From Halogeometricum borinquense DSM 11551 (lineage in GTDB: Archaea > Halobacteriota > Halobacteria > Halobacteriales > Haloferacaceae), in assembly GCF_000172995.2 (NCBI RefSeq), contig NC_014729.1:1680001-1712000 (forward strand): a stretch of DNA of 32,000 bases, written 5' to 3'. This document shows, piece by piece, positions 2,022 to 22,251 of the stretch; position 1 is the stretch's first letter; each line of letters begins with the position of its first letter. Made by a program: the position numbers and the translations under genes. Under the pieces are notes generated by a model. The model saw only the letters and a list, made by a program, of their open reading frames with translations, was not told the origin of the DNA and searched no databases.

Positions 2022-2315
2022 CTACTCGTCGTCGCTAACAGATTCGCCGCGGAAGGCGAGGATTGCCTCCTCACACGTCTGCAGACCGTCGATTCGCTCG
2101 TTATCCGACAGTGACACTGTCTCGACGACGCTCCACCCACCACCGTCCTCGTCGAAGACGAGGCCCTTCACCCACGAGTCGGTGGCCACGATGACGCCGC
2201 TTGCGTCTCCCTCCTCTTCGATAGGACTTGCAAGTTCGAGGGCGTCCGACCGATTCAGATCCATGAGTTCCTTCGCAGACAACGGCCGCGGTGGCAGCGA
2301 TTCCACGATTGTCAT
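2022..2315 (-). CDS. Small acidic hypothetical protein
   Basis: 97-aa ORF, strongly acidic, lying 48 nt downstream (same strand) of the Usp gene's neighbour position. No recognisable motif. Confidence 0.5.
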   Translation of the reverse strand: MTIVESLPPRPLSAKELMDLNRSDALELASPIEEEGDASGVIVATDSWVKGLVFDEDGGGWSVVETVSLSDNERIDGLQTCEEAILAFRGESVSDDE

Positions 2316-2437
2316 GTCGGGTCGTCGGCCGTCGCGGTGCTTGTGCCTTCCGAACCGCCTCGGTTCGTCTCGATGACAGCGTCGTGTGCAGGGACGCGAC
2401 CAAAAAGCTTCTACCCGATTACGCGGGAGTCTTTCTC

Positions 2438-4138
2438 ATGTCATCCGGAGATGCGTCAGACGACGCCTCGGTGGGGGTTTTCGGTCTCGAATTCCGGACC
2501 GACCGCGTGACCCTCGCCGTCGTCGCGCTCGCCGCTCTCGCCCTCCTCGCTCGTCTCGTTGGTCTCGGTAGCCGCCCGTTCCACTGGGATGAGGCCCGCG
2601 TCGGCTACTGGGCACTCCGCTATCTGGAGACTGGTGCGTTCGAGTACCGCCTAATCGCAGGCGGCCCCCTCCTCTACCACCTCGACAGACTCGTTTTCGC
2701 CGTCCTCGGCGTCTCCGACATGACGGCCCGCCTCCCTGTCGCCGTTCTCGGCGCGGCGCTTCCGCTTTGCGCTCTCCTCTTCCGGGACAGATTCGACGAC
2801 GCTGAGTCGCTCGTCTTCGCCGCTTTCCTCGCGTTCAACCCGCTTTTCGTCTACTACTCGCGATTCCTTCGCGGCGACGTACCGCTCGCGTTCTTCGCCC
2901 TCGCGTTCGCCGGATTCACGCTGCGCGCCTACGACCGGCGGAGCAGACGCGACGCCTACGCCGGCAGTATCGCGCTGGCGCTCGCTTTTGCCTCTTCGGG
3001 ATTCGCTGCCGCCTACGTACTGTGTGGGGTGGTCGTCGTCATCCTCCTCGTCGATCAACCGAGTGCCGTGGTCGATGGCGGAACGTCTGCGCGCCGACTC
3101 ATCGATTCAGTGCGGTCCCGCATCGCCGGACGAACGGTTCCTGCCGCCCGAGCGTTCCTGTTGTTCCTCGGAACGACGATACTCTGCTTTGCCCCGCGCG
3201 CCGGGCCACACGTCGATGTCGGCCTCACGAAACCTACGACGTGGCATCTCGTCCTCTACGAGGCCACCGTCGGCGCGCTCTGGTCGTTCTTCGGCGTCCG
3301 CGTCGCCCACCGCTGGCCGCACTGGACGCACGAACTGTTCCCGTACGTCGGTGACCTTGCCGGAACACTCGCTACTGCTGGGCTCCCGATAGTTGTCGCC
3401 GCCGTCGCCGTCTTTGGTTGGAACCGCTACGTCTCCTCGGAGCGCCGACCGCTACTCGATGCGTTCGCTTACTGGAGCGCTGCCGCGTTCGCCATCTTCC
3501 CCGTGGCGACGGAGGTGTCTGCGCCGTGGGTGGCAATTCACGTCGTCTTGCCGCTCTCGCCGCTCGCCGCCGTCGGCGGCGCGGCCCTTCTCCGACGCGC
3601 CGTCTCGCTTGCGGGCGGCGATGAACGCGACGCAACCACCGTCGCCGCCGTCATTCTCCTGCTTCTCGCCGTCGTTGCACAGGCTGGTGCCGTCACTGCC
3701 ACGGACGTGTACGGGCCCTCGGACCGGACGAACGAACTCGCGCAGTTTGCCCAACCCAGCGACGACATGACTGCTCTCGTTGAGAACGCGACTGCAATCG
3801 CGGACGACGACCCGACGACACCCGAAGTGCTGTACGTCGGGTCGAAGTACGCTACTGCGTGGGACCCCGGCAATGAGTTCCCGCCGGTCGTAGAGAGTTG
3901 GGGTAACAGGCTTCCGCTCCCGTGGTACTTCGAGCGCGCCGACGCCGACACCGTGAGTACGAAGAATCTGACGACGTTCGATGAACGCGCGGCCAACGAG
4001 TCTACGCCGCCGATAGTCGTGTCCGAACCCGGTTTGTCCGGCGGCGTCGGCGACAGACTCGGAGACGCGTACGGATCGAAGACGTACCACCTCGGCCTGT
4101 GGGACCGCGAGGTAGTCGTTTTCGTCCGGCAGGTGTGA
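2438..4138 (+). CDS. Polytopic membrane protein of the TIGR03663 / GT-C (PMT-like) type, Agl23-like
   Basis: Track ORF 2291..4138. I place the start at the in-frame ATG 2438 (MSSGDASDD...), because the upstream extension is Arg/Cys-rich. It has many TM segments. The N-terminal block RPFHWDEARVGYWALRYLETGAFEYRLIAGGPLLYH...TARLPVAVLG...YYSRFLRGD matches my memory of the archaeal TIGR03663 family, which is annotated as flippase activity-associated Agl23 in haloarchaea. Confidence 0.75.
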   Translation: MSSGDASDDASVGVFGLEFRTDRVTLAVVALAALALLARLVGLGSRPFHWDEARVGYWALRYLETGAFEYRLIAGGPLLYHLDRLVFAVLGVSDMTARLPVAVLGAALPLCALLFRDRFDDAESLVFAAFLAFNPLFVYYSRFLRGDVPLAFFALAFAGFTLRAYDRRSRRDAYAGSIALALAFASSGFAAAYVLCGVVVVILLVDQPSAVVDGGTSARRLIDSVRSRIAGRTVPAARAFLLFLGTTILCFAPRAGPHVDVGLTKPTTWHLVLYEATVGALWSFFGVRVAHRWPHWTHELFPYVGDLAGTLATAGLPIVVAAVAVFGWNRYVSSERRPLLDAFAYWSAAAFAIFPVATEVSAPWVAIHVVLPLSPLAAVGGAALLRRAVSLAGGDERDATTVAAVILLLLAVVAQAGAVTATDVYGPSDRTNELAQFAQPSDDMTALVENATAIADDDPTTPEVLYVGSKYATAWDPGNEFPPVVESWGNRLPLPWYFERADADTVSTKNLTTFDERAANESTPPIVVSEPGLSGGVGDRLGDAYGSKTYHLGLWDREVVVFVRQV

Positions 4139-4261: not shown

Positions 4262-4702
4262 CTATCTGTTGTTTTCTCTGTCGAACTCTTTCACCTCTGC
4301 TTGTTCAATCGAAACAGTCTCTAGTAGATCAAGGGCCTCTCTGGAGATAATTAAACGATTATTGTCTGAGATACCAAAATCGTCTTGTCCCGCATCTCCG
4401 ACAATCTGCATCCAGTAGAACTCGGGGAGTTCCATGTTTGGATGTAGTTCCTCGAACTGAGGCGATTTCGAGATCGTTACGTCGTCAATTTCATATCCTG
4501 ATAGGTCGCTTGACGAGAGAGTATTCTTCAACTCCTCACTGATTACGAAATTAGATACTGTAGTCAGGAGGTCATCACCTAACCAGCCGTGAAACTCGTA
4601 ATGGAGTTTCGTTACGTCTGGTGGGTGAACAGATCGGTCCATCTCGGTTTTTTCGCCAAACTGTCCAGCAACTTCGGGTTCGATGGTATAATACTCGGTC
4701 AT
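4262..4702 (-). CDS. Candidate immunity protein of the adjacent toxin (Imm11/DUF1629-like impression, unverified)
   Basis: 146-aa acidic ORF. Its ATG (4700-4702) lies 4 nt after the TGA (4707-4709) of the upstream toxin ORF on the same strand. It is AT-richer than the backbone (my hand count for 4441-4500 is 27/60 G+C). Confidence 0.7.
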   Translation of the reverse strand: MTEYYTIEPEVAGQFGEKTEMDRSVHPPDVTKLHYEFHGWLGDDLLTTVSNFVISEELKNTLSSSDLSGYEIDDVTISKSPQFEELHPNMELPEFYWMQIVGDAGQDDFGISDNNRLIISREALDLLETVSIEQAEVKEFDRENNR

Positions 4703-4706
4703 AGAT

Positions 4707-5963
4707 TCAGTCCCTCACAGAGGGTTCGAACATATCTCCATATTTATCGTCGATCTCGGTCGCTTTGTCTAGTAGTTGTTGTTTATCTGGACTTTTGTGT
4801 TTCAAATAAAAGTCATCCCATTCTTTCCTGATCTGGCTCAGGTGTATCTCTGCGTTCAGTTCTTTGGGGATGCCCCGTAAGTTCTCCAGCGAGTGCATCT
4901 CGGAGTCAGTTACCAACTCGGGCCACAGTTGCTGTACCTGTTGTTCTACCGCGTGGTGGATTACTACCTCTCCCTCAAGCCATGGATAAGCTTCGAAGAA
5001 ATTTGTTCGATAGTCGTTTGAGCTGGCTGTTCCGAATGTGGCACTCTGGTTTTTTATTGGATGTGGTGGATGATCCCTATCACTATCTGTGAAGCGTTCT
5101 AGACTACTTTGCTTATCGGGTATACGCTGGACATGTACGCTGGCTTTCCCCATCCGGAAGATACCGAGTTTCCCACCTCGCATCACGCGGTTTGCAGTCT
5201 CCTCAGCTTCGCGTTCCAGACGCTCGTCGGGATCGATTTCGATTTCGCCCGTCTGCGGAAGCATCGATACCGCGCCACCAGTTTGTTGGCGCACGTGCGC
5301 TAACTCGTGGGCGAGAATATGCTGGCCTTCCGCCGAACTCGGATCGTATTCGCCGTGGTTGAACGCGATGTGATTGCCGACAGTAAAGGCACGAGCGTTG
5401 ATGTCTTCACAGGCTTTCGCGGCCGATGGACCCGTGTGAATACGCACGTCACCGAGGGTGTCGCCCATCCGATCTTCCATCGCGCGCTGAATCGAGCTAT
5501 CGAGTTGCTTTCCGGGCGAGGAAATCACGTCCCGAACCGAATCAGGGACGTTCGCGTCACCAGCCTTTGACGCCTCATGATGCGCGCCACGACTGCGCTG
5601 GACAGATTTAGCGTTCCGTCGTTCGACATCCTTTGGGACTTCGGCAGGACGCTGTTTTTGCCGTTCACGGAACGCACGCATGTCTCGGGGTTTACCCATC
5701 GTATCGACGGTCATGCCTTCGTCGGCCCACTGCCGAACTTGATCTGCGCCGTGTTTCTTGGCCAGTCGCTGAATCTTCGTCTCCAGCCCGTCCATGTAGA
5801 TCTCTACCCCGAAGCGAGATTCACACTCTCGGGGCGTCAGCGAACCCCCACCGCCACCACGACTCCGATTCCGATTCGAGCCTCCCGTCAGCTCTTGAAT
5901 AGACGGAACGGACGAGGAATCTTTGCTCGGAGGCGTCCGCTCGTTCGCAGACCGAAATCCCAT
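4707..5963 (-). CDS. Polymorphic-toxin-like protein: DUF4157 (HExxH Zn-metallopeptidase-like) domain plus a C-terminal HNH/colicin-DNase-like domain
   Basis: Track ORF 4707..6026 begins with TTG. I prefer ATG 5963 ([10 protein letters not shown]...), which has the box AATTATATT (complement of 5990-5998) about 31 nt upstream. ATG 5987 is an alternative. The DUF4157 signature is [61 protein letters not shown] (about 5277-5534). The C-terminal [10 protein letters not shown]...(22 aa)...[19 protein letters not shown] (about 4797-4994) parallels the colicin E9-type HH...N(I/L)R..xPK....H beta-beta-alpha-Me motif. Confidence 0.85.
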
Positions 5964-6135
5964 TCGTACCGCGAACTTGATAGCCATCCAATATAATTGC
6001 TCGCTCCTTGATTGCAGCAGGCGCAATTTTGGAGATCATGTCAGAGCCCGCCCCGCACAGAACTAGCGATTCTCCGGAATCAGCGTTTGTAGAATCAAAG
6101 CTGATGTCAAGCCCTGCGAAACAATTCAGATATTC

Positions 6136-6158
6136 TCACTCTGAAACAGTCAGAGTGA
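6136..6158. other. Perfect 9-bp stem / 5-nt loop hairpin between tfb and the toxin gene
   Basis: TCACTCTGA-aacag-TCAGAGTGA read directly from the sequence. It lies in the 320-nt AT-rich spacer downstream of the tfb stop and upstream of the toxin gene start, both on the minus strand. Function (terminator or insulator) is inferred only. Confidence 0.4.
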
Positions 6159-6347
6159 TTCTAGGAATTCGAGTCTTCTTCAGACAGTTAATCTGAACAG
6201 TGCCATCTGGTTCTTCTGGGACTCGTGAGCATCGTAATCTGATTGTCTATACTAAGAGGACTGGCGATAACGGGGCTGTTCTTCGGTTTCTTGGACGTAA
6301 AGAACCGTTCTGATCGAGATACTGGGAGAAATCCCGTCGAACTGAAC

Positions 6348-7301
6348 CTAGCGGAAGCCCATCGCTTCGATCTGTTCTTGGTAGCGGTTCCGGATGGTGA
6401 CTTCCGTCACCTGCGCCACGTCGGCGACTTCGCGCTGGGTCTTCTTCTCGTTGCAGAGGAGCGAGGCAGCGTAGATAGCGGCGGCCGCAAAGCCGGTGGG
6501 CGACTTGCCGGATAGAAGGCCTTGTTCTGCGGACACGTCGATGATTTCGGTTGCTTTCGCCTGTACCTCCTCGGAGAGGCCGAGGGCCGAGGCAAAGCGC
6601 GGGACGAACTGCTTGGGATCGACGGGCTTCAGTTCGAGACCAAGTTCTTGGGAGATATAGCGGTACGTCCGACCGATTTCCTTCTGCGGGACGCGAGAGA
6701 CTTCAGCGACTTCGTCGAGTGAGCGCGGGATTCCTTCCTGTCGGCAGGCGGCATAGAGCGCGGATGTGGCGACACCCTCGATAGACCGACCGCGGATGAG
6801 GTCTTCGTTGAGCGCACGGCGGTAGATGACCGATGCGACCTCGCGGACGGAGCGCGGGACACCGAGCGCAGAGGCCATGCGGTCGATTTCGGAGAGCGCA
6901 AACTGGAGGTTACGCTCGCCGGCGTCCTTCGTTCGGATGCGCTCTTGCCACTTGCGGAGGCGGTGCATCTGCGAACGTTTCTCAGAGGAAAGCGAACGAC
7001 CGTAGGCGTCTTTGTCCTTCCAGTCGATTGTCGTCGTCAGACCGCGGTCGTGCATCGTCTCGGTGATCGGTGCGCCGACGCGGGACTTCGACTGCCGTTC
7101 AGAGTGGTTGAACGCACGCCACTCTGGACCGCGGTCTATCTGGCGCTCGTCTAAGACCAAGCCGCAGTCATCACAAACCAATTCGCCTTGGTCGGCGTCC
7201 GTGATGATATTGGTGGACTCACACTCCGGGCACGCGATGCGTTCGTCGGAATCCTGCTCCACTTCCTGCTCTCGCTGACGCTGGCGGCTCGGACGTTCCA
7301 T
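6348..7301 (-). CDS. tfb: Transcription initiation factor IIB (TFB)
   Basis: Start moved to ATG 7301 (MERPSRQRQ...). It has an N-terminal Zn ribbon ([26 protein letters not shown]), a B-reader/linker, and two cyclin-like repeats ([20 protein letters not shown]...; ...[18 protein letters not shown]...[20 protein letters not shown]). Confidence 0.96.
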
Positions 7302-7331: not shown

Positions 7332-7431
7332 CTCTTTGTGAAAAACCATCAAATTTGTTATGGTTTTTCCAGGTGGTATTGCCCGGTCATCAGCCGATCC
7401 AATTATCCCATTATCGGTCGAAATGGGGGGT

Positions 7432-8379
7432 ATGCGCACTGGAATTGCTCTTCTCTCTATTGCCCTTCTGGTTACGTCTGGTTGTCTCGGATTTGCACCA
7501 TCCGTGTCAGACGCGGGCGCGACGCCACAGGATGTCTCGAATCAGGACGGGCCGAGTGTTCGTGTTACCGTGACAGAAGTCGTGGACGGCGATACGATGA
7601 AAGTGAAATACACGAACGGGTCGCGTGATACTGTCCGTCTGTTAGGTGTCGATACGCCCGAAGTGTACGGTTCGAACACACCGGACGAGTTCGAGGGCGT
7701 GCCCGACACTGAAGCGGGAGCAGCGTGTCTTGAAACCGCCGGGGAAAACGCCTCAGCGTACGCAAAAGCGCGTCTCTCGGGCCAAGAAGTGAGTCTCGTA
7801 TTCGACGAAACAGCCGACAGGCGGGGCTACTACGGTCGCCTTCTCGGGTACGTCTACGTCGATGGCCAGTCGTTCAACTACGACCTGATCGAGACTGGTC
7901 ACGCTCGTGTGTATGATAGTACCTTTACCGAACGTGAACGGTACCAGACGGCTGAGAAAGACGCCCGTACAGCGGGCCGCGGTCTCTGGTCGTGCGCCGA
8001 GTCGGAGTCCGGCGGGACGATGACTTCTGACGGCGACAACGACGGCAACACCACCATCGAAATCGTTCGTGTCCACCCGGATGCTGACGGCAACGACAAC
8101 GAGAATCCAAACGGCGAGTACGTCGTCTTCCGGAACGAGGGCGAGCAGGTGATTGACCTCTCAGGATGGTCCGTCGCGGACGCTGCGGACAACGAGTATA
8201 CGTTCCCGTCCGGAACGACGCTCGAACCCGATGCAGAACTCACACTCAAGAGTGGAACAGGAACCGACCGGGAGGGAACAGTGTACTGGGGACGTAACTC
8301 GGCGGTGTGGAACAACGGTGGTGACACGATCACGCTCCGAGATGCCGATGGCACTGTCGTCCGCGAACGTCGCTACTAA
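7432..8379 (+). CDS. Secreted lipoprotein: thermonuclease (SNase/micrococcal nuclease) domain plus C-terminal lamin-tail domain (LTD)
   Basis: Start moved to ATG 7432 ([20 protein letters not shown], a signal peptide with a lipobox Cys). SNase motifs are VVDGDTMKV...[10 protein letters not shown]...[28 protein letters not shown]. The LTD is [65 protein letters not shown]...[18 protein letters not shown]. Confidence 0.9.
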
Positions 8380-12850: not shown

Positions 12851-14197
12851 ATGGCATCGTTGCGGACTGGCGAGATGGAGATGCATCTCGTCAGCAGGTC
12901 GGTTCCCGTGTCGGCTCCGTCGTTTCGCGCCGTTCTTCGCGCCGCCGACGCACCGCGCACGGTCTGGTCGGCACCTGATAAGGCAACAGTCGTCGGAAGC
13001 GGCGCGGCCGCGACGGTGACTGCCGACGGGCCGGATCGGTTCGACCGGATCCGCGAGGCCGCAGAGGAACTGTTTTCGTCCGGTGACGTTCACGCTGGAA
13101 CCGAGGCCGCTCGTCCACGCCTGTTCGGCGGATTCGCGTTCCACGCCGACAGCACCGACGGGTCGCCGTGGGAGGATTTCCCCGGCGCGCGCTTTGTTTT
13201 CCCCCGCGTACAGGTAACGTACGCTGAAAACGGTACGTGGCTCACGGTCAACGCCGTCGGTCCCGACGCCAACGCCGAAGCCGTCGAAGAACGCCTCGCC
13301 CGCGAACGCGAGCGGATCGAGTCGCTTCCGGACCCCGGTCCCGTCTCGGACCCACCGGGCGTCGTACATCGACGGCGGACGACGGCGAAAGATGACTGGA
13401 ACGCGGGCGTTAACGCCGCTGTCGAGCGAATCAGCGCGGGCGACTTGCGGAAGGTCGTCCTCGCACAGGCGCTTGCGGCGGATCTCGCATCCGACCTCTC
13501 GGTGCCCGATATCCTGGACCGACTCGGCGATTCCTATCCCGACTGCTATCGCTTCCTCGTCGAACCCGAACCCGACGCGGACCGCCCGCAAGCGTCGTTC
13601 TTCGGCGCGACGCCGGAACGACTCGTGAGTCTCCGCGGCCGAACCGTCGAGACGGGCGCACTGGCCGGCACGACCGGTCGCGGCGAGACGCCCGCAGAAG
13701 ACGAGTGGTTGGCGCGGGAACTGCTGGACGACGAAAAGAACGTTCACGAGCACGAACTCGTCGCAGAAACCATCCGCGACCAACTGGCTCCGTTCGCCTC
13801 GTCGGTAAACACCGGAGACCGATGCGTGAAGCGACTCGCGACAGTTCAGCATCTCTGGACGCCCATCACGGCAACGTTAGCGACCAGCGAACACGTCCTC
13901 TCGCTGGTTGAGGCGCTTCATCCGACGCCCGCCGTTGGTGGCCTCCCGCCCGAGAAGGCTCTCGAAACCATCCGCGACACCGAACCGTTCGACCGCGGAT
14001 GGTACGCCGCGCCCGTCGGCTGGATCGACGCTGCGGGCTACGGGTCGTTTGCCGTCGCCCTCCGCTCTGCTGTCTCCCGCGACGACACGACGACGCTGTT
14101 CGCTGGCGTCGGCGTCGTCGAGGACTCCGACCCCGATAGAGAGTGGGACGAGGTCCAACTGAAGTACCGCGCCCTCCTTGACGAACTGGAACGCTGA
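12851..14197 (+). CDS. menF: Isochorismate synthase
   Basis: Chorismate-binding enzyme motifs are KVVLAQ...CYRFLV...SFFGATPERLV...LAGTTGRG...DEKNVHEHELV...LHPTPAVGGLP...FDRGWYAAPVGW...FAVALRSA...AGVGVVEDSDPDREWDE. It lies directly upstream of menD. The start could also be ATG 12875 or 12881. Confidence 0.9.
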   Translation: MASLRTGEMEMHLVSRSVPVSAPSFRAVLRAADAPRTVWSAPDKATVVGSGAAATVTADGPDRFDRIREAAEELFSSGDVHAGTEAARPRLFGGFAFHADSTDGSPWEDFPGARFVFPRVQVTYAENGTWLTVNAVGPDANAEAVEERLARERERIESLPDPGPVSDPPGVVHRRRTTAKDDWNAGVNAAVERISAGDLRKVVLAQALAADLASDLSVPDILDRLGDSYPDCYRFLVEPEPDADRPQASFFGATPERLVSLRGRTVETGALAGTTGRGETPAEDEWLARELLDDEKNVHEHELVAETIRDQLAPFASSVNTGDRCVKRLATVQHLWTPITATLATSEHVLSLVEALHPTPAVGGLPPEKALETIRDTEPFDRGWYAAPVGWIDAAGYGSFAVALRSAVSRDDTTTLFAGVGVVEDSDPDREWDEVQLKYRALLDELER

Positions 14198-14232
14198 GTA
14201 CCCTCCATTGAACTGACGCCGATTCTCTCACC

Positions 14233-15984
14233 ATGACCGCACCAAACCGAAACGTCCTCTGGGCTCGCACGCTCGTAGACGAACTCGCCAAAGCCGGTGT
14301 CGATGCCGTCTGCATCACGCCCGGCAGTCGTTCGACGCCGTTGACCGAAGCGTTCGACAGACACGACGACATACACGTCTTTTCGCACCTCGATGAACGC
14401 TCCTCGGCGTTTTTCGCACTCGGACGCGCTCGACGGACCGGTGATGTGACGCCGCTCGTCTGCACCTCCGGCACCGCGGCGGCGAACTACCATCCCGCGA
14501 TAATCGAGGCAGCACAATCGCGCGTCCCGATGCTCGTCCTCACCGCCGACCGCCCGCCGGAGATACGCGACTCCGGTGCGAACCAGACGATTGACCAAGA
14601 GAAACTGTACGGTGATGCGGTCCGCTGGTACAAAGACCTCGCCGAACCCGAGGCGACGCCGCGTAAACTTCGGTCGCTCCGGACGACGGCTGCCCGTGCT
14701 CTCACGAAGGCGACGGGGACGCCCGCGGGTCCGGTTCACCTGAACGTCCCGTTCCGCAAACCGCTGGAACCGGTCACGGTCGAGGGCGACGTCCCCGACG
14801 ATCTCCCGGAAATAGCCGCTGAAGGCCGCGAAGACGCCTTCGTGGGAACGACGACCGGCGTTCCCGAACTTGACGACGACGCGCTTCGTGACCTCGCAGA
14901 ACGCCTTTCGACGCCGCGGGGTCTCGTCGTCGCCGGTCCCGCCGATGCCCCCGGCATCGACAGTGAGGCGGTGGCAGCGTTCGCCCACGCGACCGGCTTT
15001 CCCATCCTCGCAGACCCGCTCTCGGGCGTCCGGTTCGGCGGCCACGTCCGCGTTGCGCCCGTCATCGGCGGTTACGACAGCTTCCTCGATGAGCAGGTGA
15101 CGCAATCGTGGCCCGACCCGGACATCGTGTTCCGGTTCGGTGCGTCGCCCACATCGAAACCGCTCCGGAAGTACCTCGCCCGCGTGGACGCCGAGCAACT
15201 GGTCGTTGACCCCGCCGCCGGGTGGCGAGAGGCGGAATTCACCGCGACAGACCTCGTCGTTGCCGACCCCTCGCGCCTGATGGTTCGCTTGTCACGTCTC
15301 CTTGCTGGACCGGGCGGCCCTGAGTGGCGCAAGCGATGGGAGAACGCCGATGCGACGCACGAGTCCGTTCTCGAAACGAGCGACGAGTTCTGTGAGGGGC
15401 GCGTCCTCGCGGACGTGGTCGAACTCGCCCCTGACCCTGCCACGATATTCGTCTCCAACTCGATGCCCGTCCGCGATGCGGACCGCTTCTGCCCGCCGGG
15501 AACGAAGAACCTGACCGTTCTCGGCAACCGTGGCGCGTCGGGTATCGACGGTATCGTTTCAACCGCGCTCGGTGCTGGGTCAGCCACGACAGACGATCTG
15601 ACGCTCGTCACCGGCGATCTGGCCTACTACCACGATATGAACGGCCTCCTCGCTATCGGCCGTTCGGACGTTGATGCGACCATCGTCGTCGTCAACAACG
15701 ACGGCGGCGGCATCTTCCATATGCTCCCCATCGAGCAGTTCGACCCGCCGTTTACCTCGCAGTTCAAGACGCCACACGGACTGGACCTTGAACCGAGCGC
15801 GGACCTGTATGGACTCTCCTTTGCCCGCGTTGAGGGCGGAGACAGCGATGGCTTCCGCAAAGCGTACGAAACGGCAACGCAGAGCGAAGGGACACACGTG
15901 ATTGAGGTCGTCACCGACGCAGAGACGAGTCATACCGCTCGCGAGTCGCTCCGCCGTCGCGTCGTAGACGAGTTGACCGACTGA
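14233..15984 (+). CDS. menD: SEPHCHC synthase (2-succinyl-5-enolpyruvyl-6-hydroxy-3-cyclohexene-1-carboxylate synthase), ThDP-dependent
   Basis: NRNVLWARTLVDELAKAGVDAVCITPGSRSTPL...CTSGTAAANYHPAIIEA...PMLVLTADRPPE...GANQTIDQ, plus the C-terminal ThDP motif GDLAYYHDMNGL...VVVNNDGGGIF. Confidence 0.95.
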   Translation: MTAPNRNVLWARTLVDELAKAGVDAVCITPGSRSTPLTEAFDRHDDIHVFSHLDERSSAFFALGRARRTGDVTPLVCTSGTAAANYHPAIIEAAQSRVPMLVLTADRPPEIRDSGANQTIDQEKLYGDAVRWYKDLAEPEATPRKLRSLRTTAARALTKATGTPAGPVHLNVPFRKPLEPVTVEGDVPDDLPEIAAEGREDAFVGTTTGVPELDDDALRDLAERLSTPRGLVVAGPADAPGIDSEAVAAFAHATGFPILADPLSGVRFGGHVRVAPVIGGYDSFLDEQVTQSWPDPDIVFRFGASPTSKPLRKYLARVDAEQLVVDPAAGWREAEFTATDLVVADPSRLMVRLSRLLAGPGGPEWRKRWENADATHESVLETSDEFCEGRVLADVVELAPDPATIFVSNSMPVRDADRFCPPGTKNLTVLGNRGASGIDGIVSTALGAGSATTDDLTLVTGDLAYYHDMNGLLAIGRSDVDATIVVVNNDGGGIFHMLPIEQFDPPFTSQFKTPHGLDLEPSADLYGLSFARVEGGDSDGFRKAYETATQSEGTHVIEVVTDAETSHTARESLRRRVVDELTD

Positions 15985-15998
15985 GTCGGTCCGTTTGC

Positions 15999-16079
15999 GG
16001 TTGTCTCGCGGTTCCCCGCGATTCCCCGCGGTTCCCCGCGATTGTCTCACGGTTGTCTCACGGGTTTTCGCGGTCCTCC
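15999..16079. repeat. Interleaved 10/11-bp tandem repeat array (two unit types, order A-B-B-B-A-A plus 2 degenerate units)
   Basis: Read directly: GGTTGTCTCGC | GGTTCCCCGC | GATTCCCCGC | GGTTCCCCGC | GATTGTCTCAC | GGTTGTCTCAC | GGGTTTTCGC | GGTCCTCCG. It starts 15 nt after the menD stop. Confidence 0.85.
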
Positions 16080-16537
16080 GAACGGACTTCGAGAAACCGG
16101 CTTTCCAGAGCAGAACCCTTTTTCACTGCGTTCCGAAGAGAGACAGTCGTGTCTTCACCCGCTCGAACGTTGCCAATCGGTCTGATGGCCACCTGACGCT
16201 TGTTTTGACCGGCGATGCGGCCTACGAGGCAGTCTTCGGCTACACGCCGGCGTCGGGGGGCGTTTCGGTCGAGGACGCACGTCTCCGGATGGTCGTCGAG
16301 ACAGAACGTGGCGTCGTTTCCGGCGGGAACGCGACGGTTCGAATGGCTGCGAACGCGACGAACCGAACCGTAACCCGACTCCAATACGACGTGCGCGTTG
16401 ACACGGCAGTCGAACGACCCGACGCACTCGGTTCCCCGACACGGTCCGAGTGGGTGTGGCGACTGTTCGCGTACTGACGGTGGGTGATCACCCACGGCCT
16501 GACACCGGGGACAGTGCTTTTGACCGCTCCCGTCCAC

Positions 16538-17017
16538 ATGACGGATATGTCTCGCGGTGCCACCGACCCCGAAACCGAGGCGCGGCAAGTTCGTCCCCAA
16601 GAGGAGAACGACGAACTCGGGCAGTGGTTAGAGGATCTGTTCGACGGCACCGCAGAAGCCACCGTGCTGGGGCTTCCGTCGCTCCTCATTGCCGTTTTCT
16701 CGGGCGAACTCGTCGCCTCGGCGGCGGCGCTCGGGGCAGCCGTCGCCCTCTCGTGGGGCGTCGCAGCCTACCGAAACGGCCGTCTCTCGCTCGGCCCCGA
16801 GTGGCCACCGGTTTCGGTGTTCTACGGCGGTATTCGATTGCTCTGGTACAACACCGTCTACCTTGCCGCCGTCTTCGGCGTTGTCACATCTGGACTGTTT
16901 CCGACGACGCCCTCGGGACTCGCGGCGGCTATCGTTGCTGGCGTCGGTGTCGCCACTGTCGGCGTTCTCACGTTCCCGTTCGTCGCTGCGGCCGCCGATT
17001 CGGTCCGTCGCGCCTGA
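16538..17017 (+). CDS. Hypothetical membrane protein (acidic N-terminus plus 3-4 TM segments)
   Basis: Track ORF 16484..17017 starts at GTG. I prefer ATG 16538 (or 16547). TM-like stretches include LGLPSLLIAVFSGELVASAAALGAAVALSWGVAAY, LLWYNTVYLAAVFGVVTSGLF and LAAAIVAGVGVATVGVLTFPFVAAAA. It sits between menD and menB. Confidence 0.6.
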   Translation: MTDMSRGATDPETEARQVRPQEENDELGQWLEDLFDGTAEATVLGLPSLLIAVFSGELVASAAALGAAVALSWGVAAYRNGRLSLGPEWPPVSVFYGGIRLLWYNTVYLAAVFGVVTSGLFPTTPSGLAAAIVAGVGVATVGVLTFPFVAAAADSVRRA

Positions 17018-17082
17018 CTATCTCTTCTCGATCCGTCACCCGGTAAGCGAATCTTTTTGCGCGGTCCGTCCGCCTCGTCGAT

Positions 17083-18000
17083 ATGGTCTCGGACATTTTC
17101 GACTCCGACCGCTGGGAACAAGTGGACGGCGCGGCGGAGTTCGACGACATCACCTACCACCGCGCGGTAGACGTTCCGGCGGTGCGAATCGCCTTTGACC
17201 GACCCGAAAAGCGCAACGCGTTCCGACCGGGAACGGTGGACGAACTGTACGCCGCACTCGATCACGCCCGCAAGCAGGCCGACGTTGGCTGTGTCCTTCT
17301 CACCGGCAACGGCCCCTCCGAAAAAGACGGCGGGTGGGCGTTCTGTGCCGGCGGTGACCAGTCCGTCCGCGGTGGCTCTGGCTACGAATACCGCGACGAC
17401 GACGAAGCCGACGACGCTGATGACCCACTCGTCCGCGAGGCGAAGGCTGGTCGCCTCCACATTCTCGAAGTCCAGCGTCTCATTCGCTTCATGCCGAAAC
17501 CCGTCGTCGCTGTCGTTCCCGGATGGGCCGTCGGCGGCGGCCACTCGCTTCACGTCGTCTGCGATCTGACGCTCGCGTCGGACGAACACGCAAAGTTCCT
17601 CCAGACCGATCCTGATGTGGCCTCCTTCGACGCCGGGTTCGGATCTGCCTACCTCGCAAAACAGGTCGGTCAGAAGAAAGCCCGCGAAGTGTTCTTCCGC
17701 GGGAAAACCTACTCCGCAGAAGAAGCCGTGGATATGGGGATGGCGAACGAGGCGATTCCGCACGAGAAGTTAGAGACGGTTGCCTTAGAGTGGGCCGACG
17801 AGATGACGAACAAGTCGCCGATGGCCATGCGGATGCTCAAGTACGCATTCAACATGACCGACGACGGACTCGTGGGGCAACAGGTGTTCGCCGGCGAGGC
17901 GACGCGTCTCGGTTACATGACCGACGAAGCACAGGAGGGTCGGGACGCGTTCTTAGAAAAGCGCGACCCGAACTTCTCGGACTATCCGTGGCACTACTGA
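17083..18000 (+). CDS. menB: 1,4-dihydroxy-2-naphthoyl-CoA synthase (crotonase superfamily)
   Basis: ITYHRAVDVPAVRIAFDRPEKRNAFRPGTVDEL...VLLTGNG......FCAGGDQ...LHILEVQRLIRFMPKPVVAVVPGWAVGGGHSLHVVCDLTLAS...FLQTDPDVASFDAGFGSAYLA...EGRDAFLEKRDPNFSDYPWHY. This is a typical MenB, including the C-terminal tail. Confidence 0.95.
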   Translation: MVSDIFDSDRWEQVDGAAEFDDITYHRAVDVPAVRIAFDRPEKRNAFRPGTVDELYAALDHARKQADVGCVLLTGNGPSEKDGGWAFCAGGDQSVRGGSGYEYRDDDEADDADDPLVREAKAGRLHILEVQRLIRFMPKPVVAVVPGWAVGGGHSLHVVCDLTLASDEHAKFLQTDPDVASFDAGFGSAYLAKQVGQKKAREVFFRGKTYSAEEAVDMGMANEAIPHEKLETVALEWADEMTNKSPMAMRMLKYAFNMTDDGLVGQQVFAGEATRLGYMTDEAQEGRDAFLEKRDPNFSDYPWHY

Positions 18001-18061
18001 GAGTCGGTTGAGCGCGCGGACGGCACAGCGATGCCACGGACGGCTGAATACTCCGCTGTCA

Positions 18062-20008
18062 TCACGCAAAGAGGACTGTGGGTCGGCGTGCGACCGCATC
18101 AACGGGGGTTTCGTCTTCGATTCCCGGAAGCCGAATCGTTGCGGTCGTCCCGTCACCTTGCTCTGTGGCCGAGATTCGGAATGAGCCACCGTAGCGGGTC
18201 ACTGCCCAGTTGACCAGCCACAGCCCGAGTCCGGAACTGTGTTGGAGTGGCGTTTCACCCCCTTCTGAGACGACTTTTGCCTCCATTTCGTCGATTCCGG
18301 GACCGTTGTCCGAAACGACGATATCAATCCACTCGCCGTTGTTGTTGACTTCGATTACGACGTGAGGATCATTCGAGAGATTGTGTTTGATCGCGTTCTC
18401 GATGAGTTCGGTTACCATCTGTTTGAGTTCCGATCCGGCACAGATGTCCCGATCTGTTTGGATTGCCAACTGAATCGTCGCGTTCGGCCACTGCTCGCGC
18501 TGTTCGTTGACGACGGCGGTGAGAAGCACAGTGGGATCGAGTCGCTCAGGGATTCGTTCGCGGCGAGCATACTGCTCTAGTTCGCGTGCTCGTTCGCTCA
18601 TCGATAACAGGTCCTGTGCGATGCGTTCGACCCGTCGCTCGGCGTCGGCGTTTCGGCTATCCGAGCCGTACAGGTGATTGTGCCATCCCAGAAGGGCGTT
18701 CATATCGTTTCGGAGATTGTGTCGGAGTACTCTGTTGAGAACCTGAATCAACTGCTCAGTTCGCTTTCGCTCGGTGACATCCTGTTGGAATCCCACATAG
18801 TGTGTGATTGCCCCGGTCTTGTCATCGACTGGGGCGAGGTAGATCTGGTTCCAGAACGGGGTTCCATCTCGTCGGTAGTTGATTAGCTCGACGACGACTG
18901 GCTCACCCGCGTCAATAGCAGTCTCAAGCCGCTGAGAACGCTCCGGATCGGTTTGTTCTCCTTGGAGGAAACAGAGGTTCCGCCCGAGCGTCTCCTCGGC
19001 GCTGTAGCCCGTTACGCGTTCGAATCCCTCGTTGACGTAGATGAGTGGTTCGTTCGGTTCCCGAATGTCGGAGATCGAGATGCCAACCTGTGCTTCGTCC
19101 ATCGCCCTGTTTTTGATGTGGAGTTCACGCTGTCGCTCCTTTCGATCCGTGACATCCCGCCCGACACCTTGGACGCCGACAACGTCACCGTCTTCGATGA
19201 CCGGCGTTGCGTTGACTTCGAGCACGACCACGGAACCGGTGTCGTCGAGAAAGTCGAGTTCCAGATTCTGCACGTTCTGGTTATCGAGTACTCGTGCGTA
19301 CGCTTCTGCCGCAACTTCGGCTGCCGCCTCTGTCGTGAAATCAGTGAACTGCTCGCCGGTCAGTTCTGCTGGGGAGTAGCCCAAGATGCGCTTGACGGCC
19401 GAGGACGCGTAAGTGAACTGCCCCGTAAGCCCGACGCGAAAGAGGATGTCGAAGCTCGTCTCGGCGATAGCCTCGAACCGTTGTTTTTCCCGCTTGAGAC
19501 GCTCATTACGCCCGCGAAGTTCCTGTTCGTGGGCCCGGCGTTCGAGTTCTCTGCTGACAAGTTTCCCGAGCAGTTCGAGAAACATCTCCTCTGAATCGGT
19601 AAAGGGAGTGCCCCGTTCGTCCGTATCGGCAAAACAAACCGTTCCGTAGGTCTCGTTCTGAACGACGATTTTGGTCCCGATATACGTCCCGAGGCCGAAC
19701 GTATCGATAGCCTGCTGGCTGATATCCGATGCCGCGGCATCCTGTACGGCGAGTGGACTGTCGAGTTCGACAGTGAGACGACAGTAGGCTGAATCAAGTG
19801 GACAGGTTTCGCCGGGTTGGATCAGTTCGTGACCGCCCGTCGATTGAACAATCTCTTGGATTCCGTCATCGATACGAGTAAGGAATCCGATAGGTAGGTC
19901 GAAGAATTCGGCTCCGAGATCGAGGGCCCGAGCGATCTTTGCTTCGGTATCCCGCTCCGGATCGGCAAAAATGTCGTATAGCCGATGTCGGGACGAGAGG
20001 GGTGTCAT
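18062..20008 (-). CDS. Cytoplasmic sensor histidine kinase: GAF - PAS - LOV-like PAS - HisKA-like H-box - HATPase_c
   Basis: Domains by residue: N-terminal GAF-like region (aa ~20-150), PAS (aa ~175-290), LOV-type PAS (aa ~300-415, IYVNEGFERVTGYSAEETLGRNLCFLQGEQTD...NYRRDGTPFWNQ...HYVGFQQDVTERK), H-box LNRVLRHNLRNDMNAL, and the ATPase N/G boxes ELIENAIKHN...VSDNGPGI...GLGLWLV. Confidence 0.92.
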   Translation of the reverse strand: MTPLSSRHRLYDIFADPERDTEAKIARALDLGAEFFDLPIGFLTRIDDGIQEIVQSTGGHELIQPGETCPLDSAYCRLTVELDSPLAVQDAAASDISQQAIDTFGLGTYIGTKIVVQNETYGTVCFADTDERGTPFTDSEEMFLELLGKLVSRELERRAHEQELRGRNERLKREKQRFEAIAETSFDILFRVGLTGQFTYASSAVKRILGYSPAELTGEQFTDFTTEAAAEVAAEAYARVLDNQNVQNLELDFLDDTGSVVVLEVNATPVIEDGDVVGVQGVGRDVTDRKERQRELHIKNRAMDEAQVGISISDIREPNEPLIYVNEGFERVTGYSAEETLGRNLCFLQGEQTDPERSQRLETAIDAGEPVVVELINYRRDGTPFWNQIYLAPVDDKTGAITHYVGFQQDVTERKRTEQLIQVLNRVLRHNLRNDMNALLGWHNHLYGSDSRNADAERRVERIAQDLLSMSERARELEQYARRERIPERLDPTVLLTAVVNEQREQWPNATIQLAIQTDRDICAGSELKQMVTELIENAIKHNLSNDPHVVIEVNNNGEWIDIVVSDNGPGIDEMEAKVVSEGGETPLQHSSGLGLWLVNWAVTRYGGSFRISATEQGDGTTATIRLPGIEDETPVDAVARRPTVLFA

Positions 20009-20269
20009 ATGGTCCCGTAGTTCGGAGAGTATGTAAAATTGTAGCTTCTTTGAAAACCTAACTCACGATTCAGACTTGGGTTTCGGGAGTCGCCGTTTAG
20101 CATCCCACTCAATAACCTATCATTCCTGTCATTACGGGTGAGTTCGAACGTGTTACGATGGCGCTTACTCGACAGCGATTATTGATGAGATACTGAGCGA
20201 CTCGACTACCAGTCAGCCTCCCGTCGGCAAACCGAACTTTGACGCTCGCGCCGTCCTGAACGTGAGCCA

Positions 20270-21220
20270 ATGAGTACGCAGGACATCTCACGGACGAAAG
20301 CGTGGGTAATGGCCGCGCGCCCGCAGACGCTTCCGGCCGCCGCCGCCCCCATCTTCGTCGGTGTCGGCTTAGCCGTCCACGATGGCGTGTTCGCTGCGCT
20401 TCCGGCGCTTGCGGCGTTCGTCGGCGCGGCCCTTATCCAGATCGGAACGAACTTCGCCAACGACTACTACGACGCTGTACAGGGTGCTGACACGGCAGAC
20501 CGCGAGGGGTTCACCCGCGTCACTGCGGGTGGCCTCATTGCCCCCAAATCGGTCAAGCGGGCGATGTATCTCACTTTCGCCGCCGCTATTCTCCTCGGAA
20601 CGTATCTCGTCTACGTCGGCGGCGTGCCCATTCTCGTCATCGGTCTTCTCTCGGTGGCGTCGGGTATCGCCTACACCGGTGGTCCGTTCCCACTCGGCTA
20701 TCACGGACTCGGCGACCTGTTCGTCTTCATTTTCTTCGGCGTCGTCGCCGTCACTGGCACGTATTACGTCCAAGCGGCGGCCGTCATCGCCGACCCGCTT
20801 TCGGTTGGTATCCCGCCGAACACGCTCCCGTTCGACGCGTTCGTCGCTTCGCTCGCCGTCGCCGCTCTCTCGACAAACATCCTCGTCGTCAACAACGTGC
20901 GCGACAAAGAGGAGGACGAGACAACCGGAAAGCGGACGCTCGCGGTTCGGTTCGGCTACACGTTCTCTCGCGGCGAGTATCTCGCTATGCTCGCTCTCGC
21001 GTACCTCGTACCGGTCTGGTTCGCCACTCGCCAGACGTTCGGTGGCGTCGTCTTCCTCCCGCTCGTGACGCTCCCGTACGCGATTTCGGTTGCTCGAACC
21101 GTCCTCACGAAAACGTCGGGAGAGGCGCTGAACCCGGCACTCGAACGGACCGGTAAACTGCTGGCGATACACTCCCTCCTGTTTGGGATCGGCCTCTCGT
21201 TCGGGGGTCTTCCCCTCTGA
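20270..21220 (+). CDS. menA: 1,4-dihydroxy-2-naphthoate polyprenyltransferase (UbiA family)
   Basis: AWVMAARPQTLPAA...IQIGTNFANDYYDAVQGADT (first Asp-rich motif)...NNVRDKEEDETTGKRTLAV (second motif). It has about 8-9 TM segments. Confidence 0.95.
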   Translation: MSTQDISRTKAWVMAARPQTLPAAAAPIFVGVGLAVHDGVFAALPALAAFVGAALIQIGTNFANDYYDAVQGADTADREGFTRVTAGGLIAPKSVKRAMYLTFAAAILLGTYLVYVGGVPILVIGLLSVASGIAYTGGPFPLGYHGLGDLFVFIFFGVVAVTGTYYVQAAAVIADPLSVGIPPNTLPFDAFVASLAVAALSTNILVVNNVRDKEEDETTGKRTLAVRFGYTFSRGEYLAMLALAYLVPVWFATRQTFGGVVFLPLVTLPYAISVARTVLTKTSGEALNPALERTGKLLAIHSLLFGIGLSFGGLPL

Positions 21221-22251
21221 TGCGCTTCGACCCGTTCTCGCTGTCGCTCACGCGACCGCTCGGAACCGCGAACGGTCCTATCGAGTCACGTGAGGGGTTT
21301 CTCGTCCGTGTCAGCGCCAACGATGACGGGGAACAGGTGACCGGATTGGGCGAAGCGACGCCGCTTCCGGGGTGGACCGAGTCGTTGGCGGACTGTCGGG
21401 CAGCGCTGGAGCGCGGTGACCCGGACGCGACGACGCCCGCCGCGAGACACGGGTACTCACTCGCACGTGCCGATGCTGAGGCGCGTGAGACAGATGTCCG
21501 CCTCTGCGCCCGTCTCGCGGCCGAACACGGTGTCGGACCGAGCGCGGACGCCGTCCCAGTCAACGCCACCGTTGGCGACGACACGCCCACTGAGACGGCC
21601 GATGCGGTCCGAGAGATGGTCGAATCGGGATTCGATGTGGTGAAGATCAAAGTCGGCGCGCGGGAACCGGAGGCCGATAGGGCGCGACTCCGGGCGGCCC
21701 GTGACGCGGCCCCCGACGCCGAACTCCGCGCCGACGCCAACGGCGCGTGGGGCCGCGAAACCGCGGCAGAGATGCTCGATGCGGCCGCCGAACTCGACTA
21801 CGCGTACGTCGAGCAACCGCTTCCGGCCGACGACCTGACTGGACTCGCCGAACTTCGCGGGTGCGGTGTCGGCGTCGCCGTAGACGAGACGTTGGCTTCA
21901 CACGCCGTTGCGGCCGTTCTCGACGCCGACGCCGCAGACGTACTCGTTCTCAAGCCGATGGCGTTGGGCGGACCGGACCGGACGCTGGACGCAGCGCAGA
22001 CGGCCCGAGACGCTGGCGTTGAGGCGATTGTGACGACGACGATAGACGGCGTAGTGGCCCGCCTCGGCGCGCTTCACGTTGCCGCTGCGATTCCTGACGT
22101 GCCCGCCTGTGGCCTCGCGACGGGGTCGCTTCTGGCCGACGATCTGGCTCCCGATCCGGCACCCATCAGGGAAGGGGCAATGTCGGTTCCTGACGGACCG
22201 GGACTGGCGGGTGACGCGTTGCAGGCGCTCTCTCATCCGGGCGACTCCTGA
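21220..22251 (+). CDS. menC: o-succinylbenzoate synthase (enolase superfamily, MR/MLE type)
   Basis: Its ATG overlaps the menA stop (cTGATGc at 21218-21222). Metal and acid-base residues appear in context at VVKIKVG...LRADANGAW...YVEQPL...VAVDETL...VLVLKPMALGG. Confidence 0.85.
   Translation: MRFDPFSLSLTRPLGTANGPIESREGFLVRVSANDDGEQVTGLGEATPLPGWTESLADCRAALERGDPDATTPAARHGYSLARADAEARETDVRLCARLAAEHGVGPSADAVPVNATVGDDTPTETADAVREMVESGFDVVKIKVGAREPEADRARLRAARDAAPDAELRADANGAWGRETAAEMLDAAAELDYAYVEQPLPADDLTGLAELRGCGVGVAVDETLASHAVAAVLDADAADVLVLKPMALGGPDRTLDAAQTARDAGVEAIVTTTIDGVVARLGALHVAAAIPDVPACGLATGSLLADDLAPDPAPIREGAMSVPDGPGLAGDALQALSHPGDS

Follow-up and report, generated by a model that had tools for sequence, protein, structure and literature searches.

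The locus described here lies in a 32,000-nucleotide stretch of the chromosome of Halogeometricum borinquense DSM 11551, which was analysed as a whole and is called the window below. On the minus strand of the window, the gene for a modular protein, Hbor_17540, is followed by a small open reading frame (ORF) of 146 codons. The two probably form a polymorphic toxin-immunity pair, made up of an injected modular nuclease and the protein that blocks it, at a locus shaped by cassette displacement between strains. A first-pass annotation, made from the sequence alone, had read the locus as a DNase effector with a cognate immunity protein; the core of that reading is supported by our analysis, and its biochemical assignment is probable but not proven. 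The features of the pair are as follows, with residue numbers of the toxin given for its 439-residue form unless stated otherwise.

4707..5963, minus strand: toxin gene Hbor_17540, 418 residues from the ATG at 5963, with the stop codon TGA at 4709-4707.

5508..5963, minus strand: N-terminal region of the toxin, residues 22-173, a stretch rich in S, G, R and N and then a conserved segment, matching no Pfam family.

5274..5507, minus strand: DUF4157 / eCIS_core / 'PVC-metallopeptidase' domain, residues 174-251, matched by PF13699.

5043..5273, minus strand: linker, residues 252-328, in which alignments place the last conserved part of the shared module (...VHVQR), together with the pre-toxin junction.

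4710..5042, minus strand: C-terminal toxin domain, residues 329-439, here named the 'VHH' family, a predicted His-Me/HNH-type nuclease (family alignment and AlphaFold2, AF2, model).

4953..4958, minus strand: invariant HH pair, H357-H358, at the end of strand 1 (alignment and AF2 secondary structure).

4842..4883, minus strand: N382-L-R-G-I-P...N391...H395, strand 2 and the start of the helix (invariant columns).

4703..4706, minus strand: the 4 nt (ATCT) that separate the stop codon of the toxin from the start of the immunity gene, read from the sequence.

4262..4702, minus strand: immunity gene, 146 residues from the ATG at 4702 (ADQ67321.1 / WP_006054864.1), encoding a putative divergent Imm11/MXAN_0049-like protein.

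Two forms of the toxin are on record. The ORF list and translation give a longer form (4707..6026, minus strand) of 439 residues from a TTG at 6026, and exact-sequence look-up identified GenBank ADQ67322.1, which is Hbor_17540, as this TTG form and RefSeq WP_394295391.1, labelled 'eCIS core domain-containing protein', as the 418-residue form. Two observations support the start at 5963: alignments with homologues from other genera begin at residue 1 of the shorter form (MGFRSANE), and the RefSeq start is identical. The second ORF was noted in the first-pass annotation as acidic and as starting 4 nt past the toxin stop, and both points hold: the protein is strongly acidic, with an isoelectric point (pI) of 4.18 and 32 D+E against 10 K+R.

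The N-terminal part of the toxin carries the DUF4157 block that had been recognised, with its HExxH motif, in the first-pass annotation. PF13699 (eCIS_core, formerly DUF4157) matches it with an E-value of 2.3e-31 and 108.2 bits against a gathering threshold of 22, over positions 1-78 of the 79 in the profile, and the motif reads HELAH at 5295-5309 on the minus strand, exactly where it had been placed. DUF4157 is regarded as a general marker of injection-system cargo, with loading, chaperoning and release as its candidate roles (PMC8213781, PMC11297309). By analogy with the cargo described in the same two papers, we infer that the N-terminal region may be the loading or recognition part of a delivery module.

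This module is shared widely among haloarchaea. Protein alignment with the full-length alternative toxin of another H. borinquense strain (L003, see below) puts its end at about residue 298 of the 418-residue form, and the same linker is found in two metagenomic haloarchaeal copies (P0001, P0006). Counted as 279 residues from MGFRSANE, the DUF4157 domain included, the module recurs in 52 haloarchaeal loci at 49-89% identity; these belong to Haloferax larsenii, H. elongans, Haloferax sp. S1W, Natrinema, Halohasta, Haloarchaeobius and uncultured haloarchaeal genomes, and the number of copies per genome is 5-7 (7 in H. elongans). The C-terminal regions at these 52 loci fall into 12 clusters, none of which is the toxin-domain family of Hbor_17540; a GH-E HNH nuclease (E 4.4e-27) is found among them, as is a toxin deaminase of the BURPS668_1122 type. 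In nearly all 52 loci a downstream gene begins between -7 and +12 nt from the toxin stop, and ankyrin (Ank), SUKH and Imm49 proteins are among the products. As a separate observation, the commonest layout among these paralogues (L008-L058) is a C-terminal region of 150-230 residues followed by a tightly coupled gene for about 300-330 residues, both without a Pfam family; it looks like a dominant and entirely uncharacterised haloarchaeal type of toxin-immunity pair.

The C-terminal domain of Hbor_17540 belongs to a different and mostly bacterial family. A word-indexed search returned 179 homologues at 45-77% identity, chiefly from Rhizobium, Pseudomonas, Photobacterium, Chromobacterium, Dickeya, Luteibacter and several actinomycetes, and an exhaustive profile search returned 1217 clusters (50% identity) at E<=1e-3, of which 537 remained at E<=1e-30. 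In all 150 family proteins listed, which range from 110 to 1842 residues, the domain sits at the extreme C-terminus. In 58 of the longer ones the N-termini carry RHS, PAAR, prePAAR, T7SS_signal, WXG100_2, PT-HINT, PT-TG, Tox-PAAR-like, DUF6861 and LysM domains, and eCIS_core once. Such varied N-terminal partners, combined with the constant C-terminal position, are the signature of an exchangeable polymorphic-toxin domain.

Conserved residues within this domain are few and clearly grouped. Thirty diverse members share Y339, H357, H358, H378, N382-L-R-G-I-P387, N391, H395, W403 and F406 without exception, and the HH pair is near-invariant among 121 family sequences. VVIHH occupies residues 354-358 of the 439-residue ORF, in agreement with the numbering of H357/H358 in the first-pass annotation, NLRGIPK residues 382-388, and EIHLSQ residues 393-398. 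The motifs of the pattern proposed there, HH-(~22)-N(L/I)R-x-x-PK-x5-H, are all present; measured exactly, H358 to N382 is 24 positions, followed by 9 from N382 to N391 and 4 from N391 to H395. The arrangement xHH, E, H, H, W resembles the signatures of Tox-LHH and Tox-AHH given by Zhang et al. (PMC3482391).

The 146-residue protein has a family of its own. It has 12 close homologues, and a profile search extended these to 2094, almost all of them unannotated bacterial proteins of 138-148 residues. Set beside the 179 homologues and 1217 clusters of the toxin domain, these 2094 indicate, at the level of sequence, that conservation of both partners is far beyond chance. Among 126 relatives of the small protein, Imm11 (PF07791/DUF1629) was the only Pfam family matched at E<=0.01, by 13 of them with a best E of 4.4e-6, and one homologue carries a precomputed PF07791 annotation. 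The AF2 model of the window protein, with a predicted local distance difference test score (pLDDT) of 93.6, is mostly beta with three helices. A Foldseek search with this model gave a sole meaningful match in the PDB, MXAN_0049 (6a4c; E 4.3e-3, probability 1.00, template modelling score 0.65), the next match having an E of 1.3. The earlier guess of Imm11/DUF1629 was thus right at the family level. Weighing against it, the window protein itself scores only 11.7 bits against Imm11, where the gathering threshold is 22.1 (E 0.17), and a search of PDB sequences with the family profile was empty, so that similarity to MXAN_0049 is not detectable in sequence. We regard the 146-residue protein as a divergent relative of Imm11, as judged from family profiles and the predicted structure. 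Experiments have established MXAN_0049 as the immunity protein of the PAAR-linked AHH nuclease MXAN_0050, which degrades genomic DNA (PMC12077131), and the only partners listed for Imm11 are Tox-AHH, Tox-HNH and Tox-SHH (PMC3482391).

The small gene keeps its place beside the toxin domain in organisms that are far apart. Behind the same toxin domain, at a distance of 4-9 nt, Photobacterium (L005), Luteibacter (L006) and Actinokineospora (L007) all have an ORF of 139-146 residues, and these bacterial partner proteins are 38-45% identical to the window protein (hhalign E 6.9e-50). The spacing is as tight as in the window, and the same linkage is seen in two haloarchaeal metagenome contigs (L061, L062). 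Because the linkage holds in three unrelated bacteria and in haloarchaeal contigs, the toxin and immunity genes can be said to move as one cassette in bacteria and archaea alike. This bears out the earlier call of a cognate immunity gene, and the small ORF is linked to the toxin domain rather than conserved independently of it.

Two side observations concern the cassette in other contexts. On a plasmid of Photobacterium sp. GJ3 (CP073579; L005 1-7040) it is an orphan in a long array downstream of a Pyocin_S gene, and the array also contains a tandem duplicate block (a CdiI_5-like gene, a 53-residue ORF and an ankyrin gene) together with Colicin_Pyocin and Imm31 immunity genes. In an ENA metagenome contig (L060 1985-2599) the toxin domain and the first ~85 immunity residues make up a single ORF of 204 residues, with further immunity fragments in other frames; its toxin domain is the most acidic of the family (pI 4.62). 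We read this contig, from its reading frames, as a fused or decaying cassette.

Strains of H. borinquense differ at this locus. Three other assemblies of the species have the immunity protein with one residue changed. In one of them (CP050274, L002) the arrangement is as in the window, with a full-length toxin ORF. In the two others (CP048739, L001; JAXCMF010000021, L003) a four-gene array lies between the same TFB and Agl23 genes that flank the window pair:

Gene 1 of L001/L003: toxin of 666/675 residues with the same N-terminal module and a different C-terminal region of ~380 residues.

Gene 2 of L001/L003: Imm49-like protein of 274 residues, with 1 nt between the toxin stop and its start.

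Gene 3 of L001/L003: ORF of 257 residues that starts within the DUF4157 domain and bears the toxin domain of the window.

Gene 4 of L001/L003: immunity gene of 146 residues.

Position 5547 of the window: breakpoint relative to the other strains (blastn and sliding identity).

Downstream from 5547, the window matches the 5'-truncated orphan of L001/L003 at 96% DNA identity, whereas its 5' part (6030-5253) is only ~85% identical to the full-length gene of L003 and the flanks agree at 97-100%. Compared as proteins, the window toxin and the full-length L003 toxin share 82% identity over the first ~300 residues, and identity with the orphan reaches 97%. The homology with the orphan starts directly after a stop codon, ~35 codons ahead of the orphan ATG. 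A simple recent deletion from an L003-like array was considered and rejected, since the 5' 480 nt of the toxin are only ~85% identical against 97-100% for the flanks. The simplest history is that recombination within the N-terminal module brought a diverged toxin-immunity unit into the L003 lineage, where it displaced the resident cassette to the position of an orphan, and that DSM 11551 keeps that cassette in the expressed position.

Orphans of the cassette are known from L001/L003, from the metagenome contigs L061 and L062, and from the Photobacterium Pyocin_S array. The L062 array has a full-length toxin, a gene for 144 residues, an orphan of the toxin-domain family, an Imm11-like gene and another orphan. 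The features that define polymorphic toxins (PMC3482391) are all found here, namely an N-terminal module with alternative C-termini, a coupled immunity gene that travels with the toxin, and varied scaffolds and orphans. With the module recurring on other C-terminal toxins and the cassette orphaned in other strains, the first-pass reading as a polymorphic toxin stands.

The region upstream of the toxin also varies between strains:

6027..6347, minus strand: upstream intergenic region with a guanine-plus-cytosine (GC) fraction of 0.46, the presumed promoter site (composition and strain comparison).

A scan for sigma-70 promoters and terminators was uninformative, the bacterial model not being applicable to an archaeon. 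About 100 bp immediately upstream of the toxin start (~6031-6129) are missing from the three other H. borinquense assemblies, and in L002 (4567-4675) their place is held by an 83-bp partial duplicate of the toxin 5' end. From these alignments the promoter-proximal region of the toxin locus appears to be a recombination hot spot.

What the toxin domain does was approached through its predicted fold. The AF2 model, built from 121 sequences, has a pLDDT of 96.1 and consists of a helix, the strand VVIHH, two short helices, the strand LRGIP, a long helix from K388 onwards with N391 and H395 on it, and one more helix at the end. Judged on this AF2 secondary structure, it has the beta-beta-alpha layout of His-Me finger nucleases, with HH ending strand 1. 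The spacing of N382, N391 and H395 is that of N118, H127 and H131 in colicin E9. By analogy with H102/H103 of colicin E9, roles as metal ligand and general base are proposed for H357/H358, and N382, N391 and H395 are proposed to be the asparagine and the metal-binding residues of the site. With hhalign the toxin segment is placed on colicin E9 DNIRVTTPKRHIDIH in the predicted register, at a level that is not significant; the colicin E9 sequence used for this matched colicin E9 of the PDB over its full length (E 9.3e-89).

Remote relatives point in the same direction. TIGR02269 (SitA6) matches one family member (P0102) at E 4.9e-4 with 19.7 bits, aligning residues 39-157 with positions 78-200 of the 209 in the profile, and a second member (P0107) at E 0.06; the window toxin itself has no TIGR02269 match. 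DUF2380 of Pfam is weakly matched by 6 of the 121 family members. The toxin domains of SitA6 are AHH nucleases (PMC8546572), and at most the profile alignments suggest a remote relationship between the two families. The top 50 Foldseek matches in BFVD include 33 proteins with names, and for 22 of those the name is that of an HNH, homing, NUMOD4 or DNA/RNA endonuclease. A match in NCBIfam to the VPA1263 T6SS DNase was rejected as evidence on the fold, since it falls in the pre-toxin junction of one protein (P0014), outside the toxin domain.

Several results weigh against the nuclease assignment. The toxin domain of the window protein matched no Pfam family, the HNH clan included (E<=1), and no NCBIfam family, and no HNH-clan family is among the 25 listed of the 54 Pfam families matched when the 121 members were searched at E<=10. 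Searches of PDB sequences were empty, with the single sequence and with the profile alike. Foldseek gave six matches in the PDB, the best being IscB at E 1.9 and another EndoG at E 9.5, and the best match in BFVD, an HNH endonuclease, had an E of 0.22, none of the matches being individually significant. The hhalign comparison with colicin E9 had a probability of 0.12% and an E of 0.48, and that with a genuine Haloferax GH-E domain an E of 0.27; both alignments lie at 0.1-0.2% probability. The SitA6 match is under its cut-off (19.7 against 85.75 bits) and was found on scanning 30 proteins. Lastly, 18 of the 121 family members weakly match Pfam ARPP-2 (PF22549; best E 0.0026), a family for which no description was found in literature searches.

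These results could mean that the pair is a delivered toxin-immunity module whose C-terminal domain is some other metal-dependent enzyme, or a non-enzymatic toxin in which HH...N...H arose by chance. The want of a significant HNH match by any method would fit such a domain, as would the ARPP-2 matches and the 24-residue helical insert between the strands, which is longer than that of the colicin DNases. We consider it unlikely nonetheless, for the immunity lineage of Imm11 and MXAN_0049 is reported only with HNH-fold toxins, the sub-threshold match to the SitA6 model of AHH toxins spans the whole domain, the weak structural matches are mostly HNH endonucleases, and the invariant residues are those expected of a His-Me site. 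That the toxin domain has a His-Me nuclease fold is therefore our clear preference and is held with considerable confidence; the support is convergent, with no single match significant, and the assignment is likely but not proven. Of the HNH/DNase assignment in the first-pass annotation, the beta-beta-alpha layout of the AF2 model and the invariant HH/H/N/N/H residues speak for it, and the match to a beta-beta-alpha-Me nuclease that was to secure it did not appear at significance in Pfam, PDB sequences, hhalign or Foldseek.

The route by which such a toxin could be delivered was given as unknown in the first-pass annotation, and archaeal versions of these systems as essentially uncharacterised; both statements are outdated. 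H. borinquense assembles a membrane-anchored contractile injection system and kills H. volcanii on contact (PMC11566945, Sci Adv 2024), with the injection-system cluster, Hbor_38640-38890, located on plasmid pHBOR03 (PMC11566945). The DUF4157 proteins Hbor_01880, 02990, 07690, 38720 and 38900 are enriched in the secretome only with an intact sheath gene, and two of them, Hbor_02990 and Hbor_38900, proved toxic in Haloferax volcanii, an effect that the gene downstream of each neutralises; a working injection system is also present in H. elongans (PMC11566945). By comparison with these proteins, it is probable that Hbor_17540 is likewise delivered by the H. borinquense injection system.

Against this stands the absence of Hbor_17540 from the nine proteins that were found enriched in the wild-type secretome, although proven toxins were also missed there, according to the authors (PMC11566945). 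Hbor_17540 is not mentioned in that paper, and neither it nor Hbor_17530 was found in the paper, its supplements or the other literature searched. One might therefore see in the locus a silent or decaying relic, intact in sequence, unexpressed or not loaded, and kept mainly for immunity against neighbours with the same toxin. In addition to its non-detection among the system-dependent secreted proteins (PMC11566945), the cassette is mostly a 5'-truncated orphan in other strains and in metagenomes, and its upstream region is variable between strains. DSM 11551 and CP050274 (L002), however, both have a full-length ORF with a complete, in-frame N-terminal module, and between strains the locus is conserved at 96-97% in DNA and 97% in protein with no disruptions, which makes a relic quite improbable in our view.

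The toxin has no Sec or Tat signal, as read from its sequence, and the pair consists of two small, tightly coupled genes in a low-GC islet, as might be expected of an intracellular toxin-antitoxin or abortive-infection module that acts inside its producer without being exported. The toxin gene leads the pair, however, and has a module of ~300 residues that marks injection-system cargo; the same C-terminal domain is fused in bacteria to Rhs, PAAR and type VII secretion system (T7SS) export modules; and arrays of orphans, like homologues of the N-terminal module, are what one typically finds with exported polymorphic toxins. We give an intracellular role very little credence and keep to an injected effector with its immunity protein.

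The mechanism that we propose may be put as follows. The pair lies on the chromosome, apart from the injection system of pHBOR03, which works in the manner of a type VI secretion system (T6SS). The N-terminal ~280 residues would serve to load the toxin onto the injection machinery and perhaps to set it free by proteolysis. The C-terminal ~110 residues would be an exchangeable metal-dependent nuclease of the His-Me finger type (HNH/EndoVII-type, xHH clade, nearest to AHH/LHH), in which H357/H358 end strand 1 and H378, N382, N391 and H395 complete the metal site. In the cytoplasm of an injected neighbour the toxin would degrade nucleic acid, while the Imm11/MXAN_0049-like protein, whose gene is translationally coupled to that of the toxin, would bind and block the nuclease within the producer and its kin. 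The locus itself would evolve by cassette displacement, an incoming unit taking the expressed position and leaving the old cassette 5'-truncated with its immunity gene intact.

Known systems share parts of this scheme. The other injection-system pairs of H. borinquense (Hbor_02990, Hbor_38900, Hbor_38740 and others) come from the same organism and have the DUF4157 marker and a tightly linked protective downstream gene. Two of the published pairs are chromosomal and away from the injection-system cluster, as is Hbor_17540, and the published study saw no obvious toxin candidates between the two blocks of injection-system genes and named no activity for the confirmed toxins (PMC11566945). Compared with those effectors, Hbor_17540 differs in that a nuclease fold and an Imm11-type immunity protein can be proposed for it. 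The MXAN_0050/MXAN_0049 pair of Myxococcus xanthus has an immunity fold (6a4c) like that of our 146-residue model and an xHH-type nuclease as partner, and serves in kin discrimination; it is delivered by PAAR and the T6SS in a bacterium, whereas Hbor_17540 would use DUF4157 and an injection system in an archaeon, and Hbor_17540 has no Pfam AHH match. SitA6 (TIGR02269/DUF2380) is the only curated model that aligned across the whole toxin domain of family members. Its proteins are myxobacterial lipoprotein toxins with an escort domain that are delivered by outer-membrane exchange, unlike Hbor_17540.

The colicin E9 and pyocin S-type DNases share the HH at a strand end and then N-x8-(H/N)-x3-H on strand 2 and the helix. 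Colicin E9 gave no sequence or fold match, however, and Hbor_17540 has its 24-residue helical insert between the strands; moreover, the colicin Im proteins are four-helix proteins, whereas the model of the 146-residue immunity protein is mostly beta and Imm11-like. In the orphan cassettes of bacterial Rhs and contact-dependent inhibition (CDI) loci, as in the arrays of L001 and L003, a full-length toxin is followed by a 5'-truncated toxin fragment whose immunity gene is intact, and the full-length toxin has the upstream homology region in common with the fragment. The substrate of recombination is the DUF4157 module here, and Rhs or FHA repeats in the bacterial systems.

Composition gives some indication of where the cassette came from. 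Across the toxin gene the GC fraction is 0.59 in the N-terminal region (host-like), 0.585 in the DUF4157 domain, 0.53 in the linker and 0.47 in the toxin domain, and it is 0.45 in the immunity gene; the flanking genes have 0.62-0.66. The toxin domain is 55-66% identical to proteobacterial copies. Low GC and this level of identity suggest that the cassette was acquired horizontally onto a resident scaffold, and its toxin domain may since have turned unusually acidic. With a pI of 4.83 it is the second most acidic of 119 scorable family sequences, for which the median is 8.9. Such acidity points to adaptation to a high-salt cytoplasm, hence to haloarchaeal targets, and we infer that the targets are probably other haloarchaea.

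The surroundings of the pair are ordinary chromosomal genes, and no tRNA gene or repeat was found that would mark the edges of the islet. The TFB gene lies upstream of the toxin gene (6348-7301, minus strand), and an Agl23/PMT_2-type glycosyltransferase gene (2291-4138, plus strand) converges on the locus from the other side. Beside the TFB gene, 7360-8379 (plus strand) encodes a protein with SNase and lamin-tail domains and a hydrophobic N-terminus, probably a secreted nuclease, that is kept in all strains. Further away, 12851-22251 is a cluster resembling that for menaquinone biosynthesis, with MenF-like (chorismate-binding), MenD-like (thiamine pyrophosphate-dependent), MenB-like (enoyl-CoA hydratase), MenA-like (UbiA-type) and MenC-like (enolase-superfamily) genes; the cluster is interrupted by the gene for a PAS/GAF histidine kinase (18062-20008, minus strand). 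A second low-GC islet at 26745-28999 (plus strand; 0.43-0.52 against 0.60 for the window) has two ORFs of 415 and 334 residues, 2 nt apart, neither of which has a Pfam family or a sequence relative in the PDB, and could be another mobile or defence module.

Systems of this kind were predicted in 2012 and demonstrated in H. borinquense in 2024. What is new here is a prediction of activity for one of the effectors, a family pair without Pfam annotation, a cassette common to bacteria and archaea, and the displacement of an orphan between strains. We lean, by a narrow measure, towards a broader account in which a cassette not covered by Pfam (>1200 toxin and >2000 immunity clusters) crossed from bacteria to an archaeal effector scaffold, was shifted in charge towards acidity for work in a high-salt cytoplasm, and has been shuffled between expressed and orphan positions by recombination in the DUF4157 module. 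If true, orphan-cassette displacement would be documented for the first time in an effector locus of an archaeon, and Hbor_17540 would be the first injected effector of archaea to which a biochemical activity can be assigned. It would give the archaeal injection system a mechanism that can be tested by mutation, in the form of a His-Me nuclease with H357/H358 and its matched immunity protein. Archaeal effectors would then draw on the same pool of toxin-immunity cassettes as the Rhs, PAAR and T7SS toxins of bacteria, and defining the toxin and immunity families would improve annotation in many bacteria. As H. borinquense shows, strains of one haloarchaeal species differ in the cassette with which they are 'armed', and such differences are raw material for kin discrimination.

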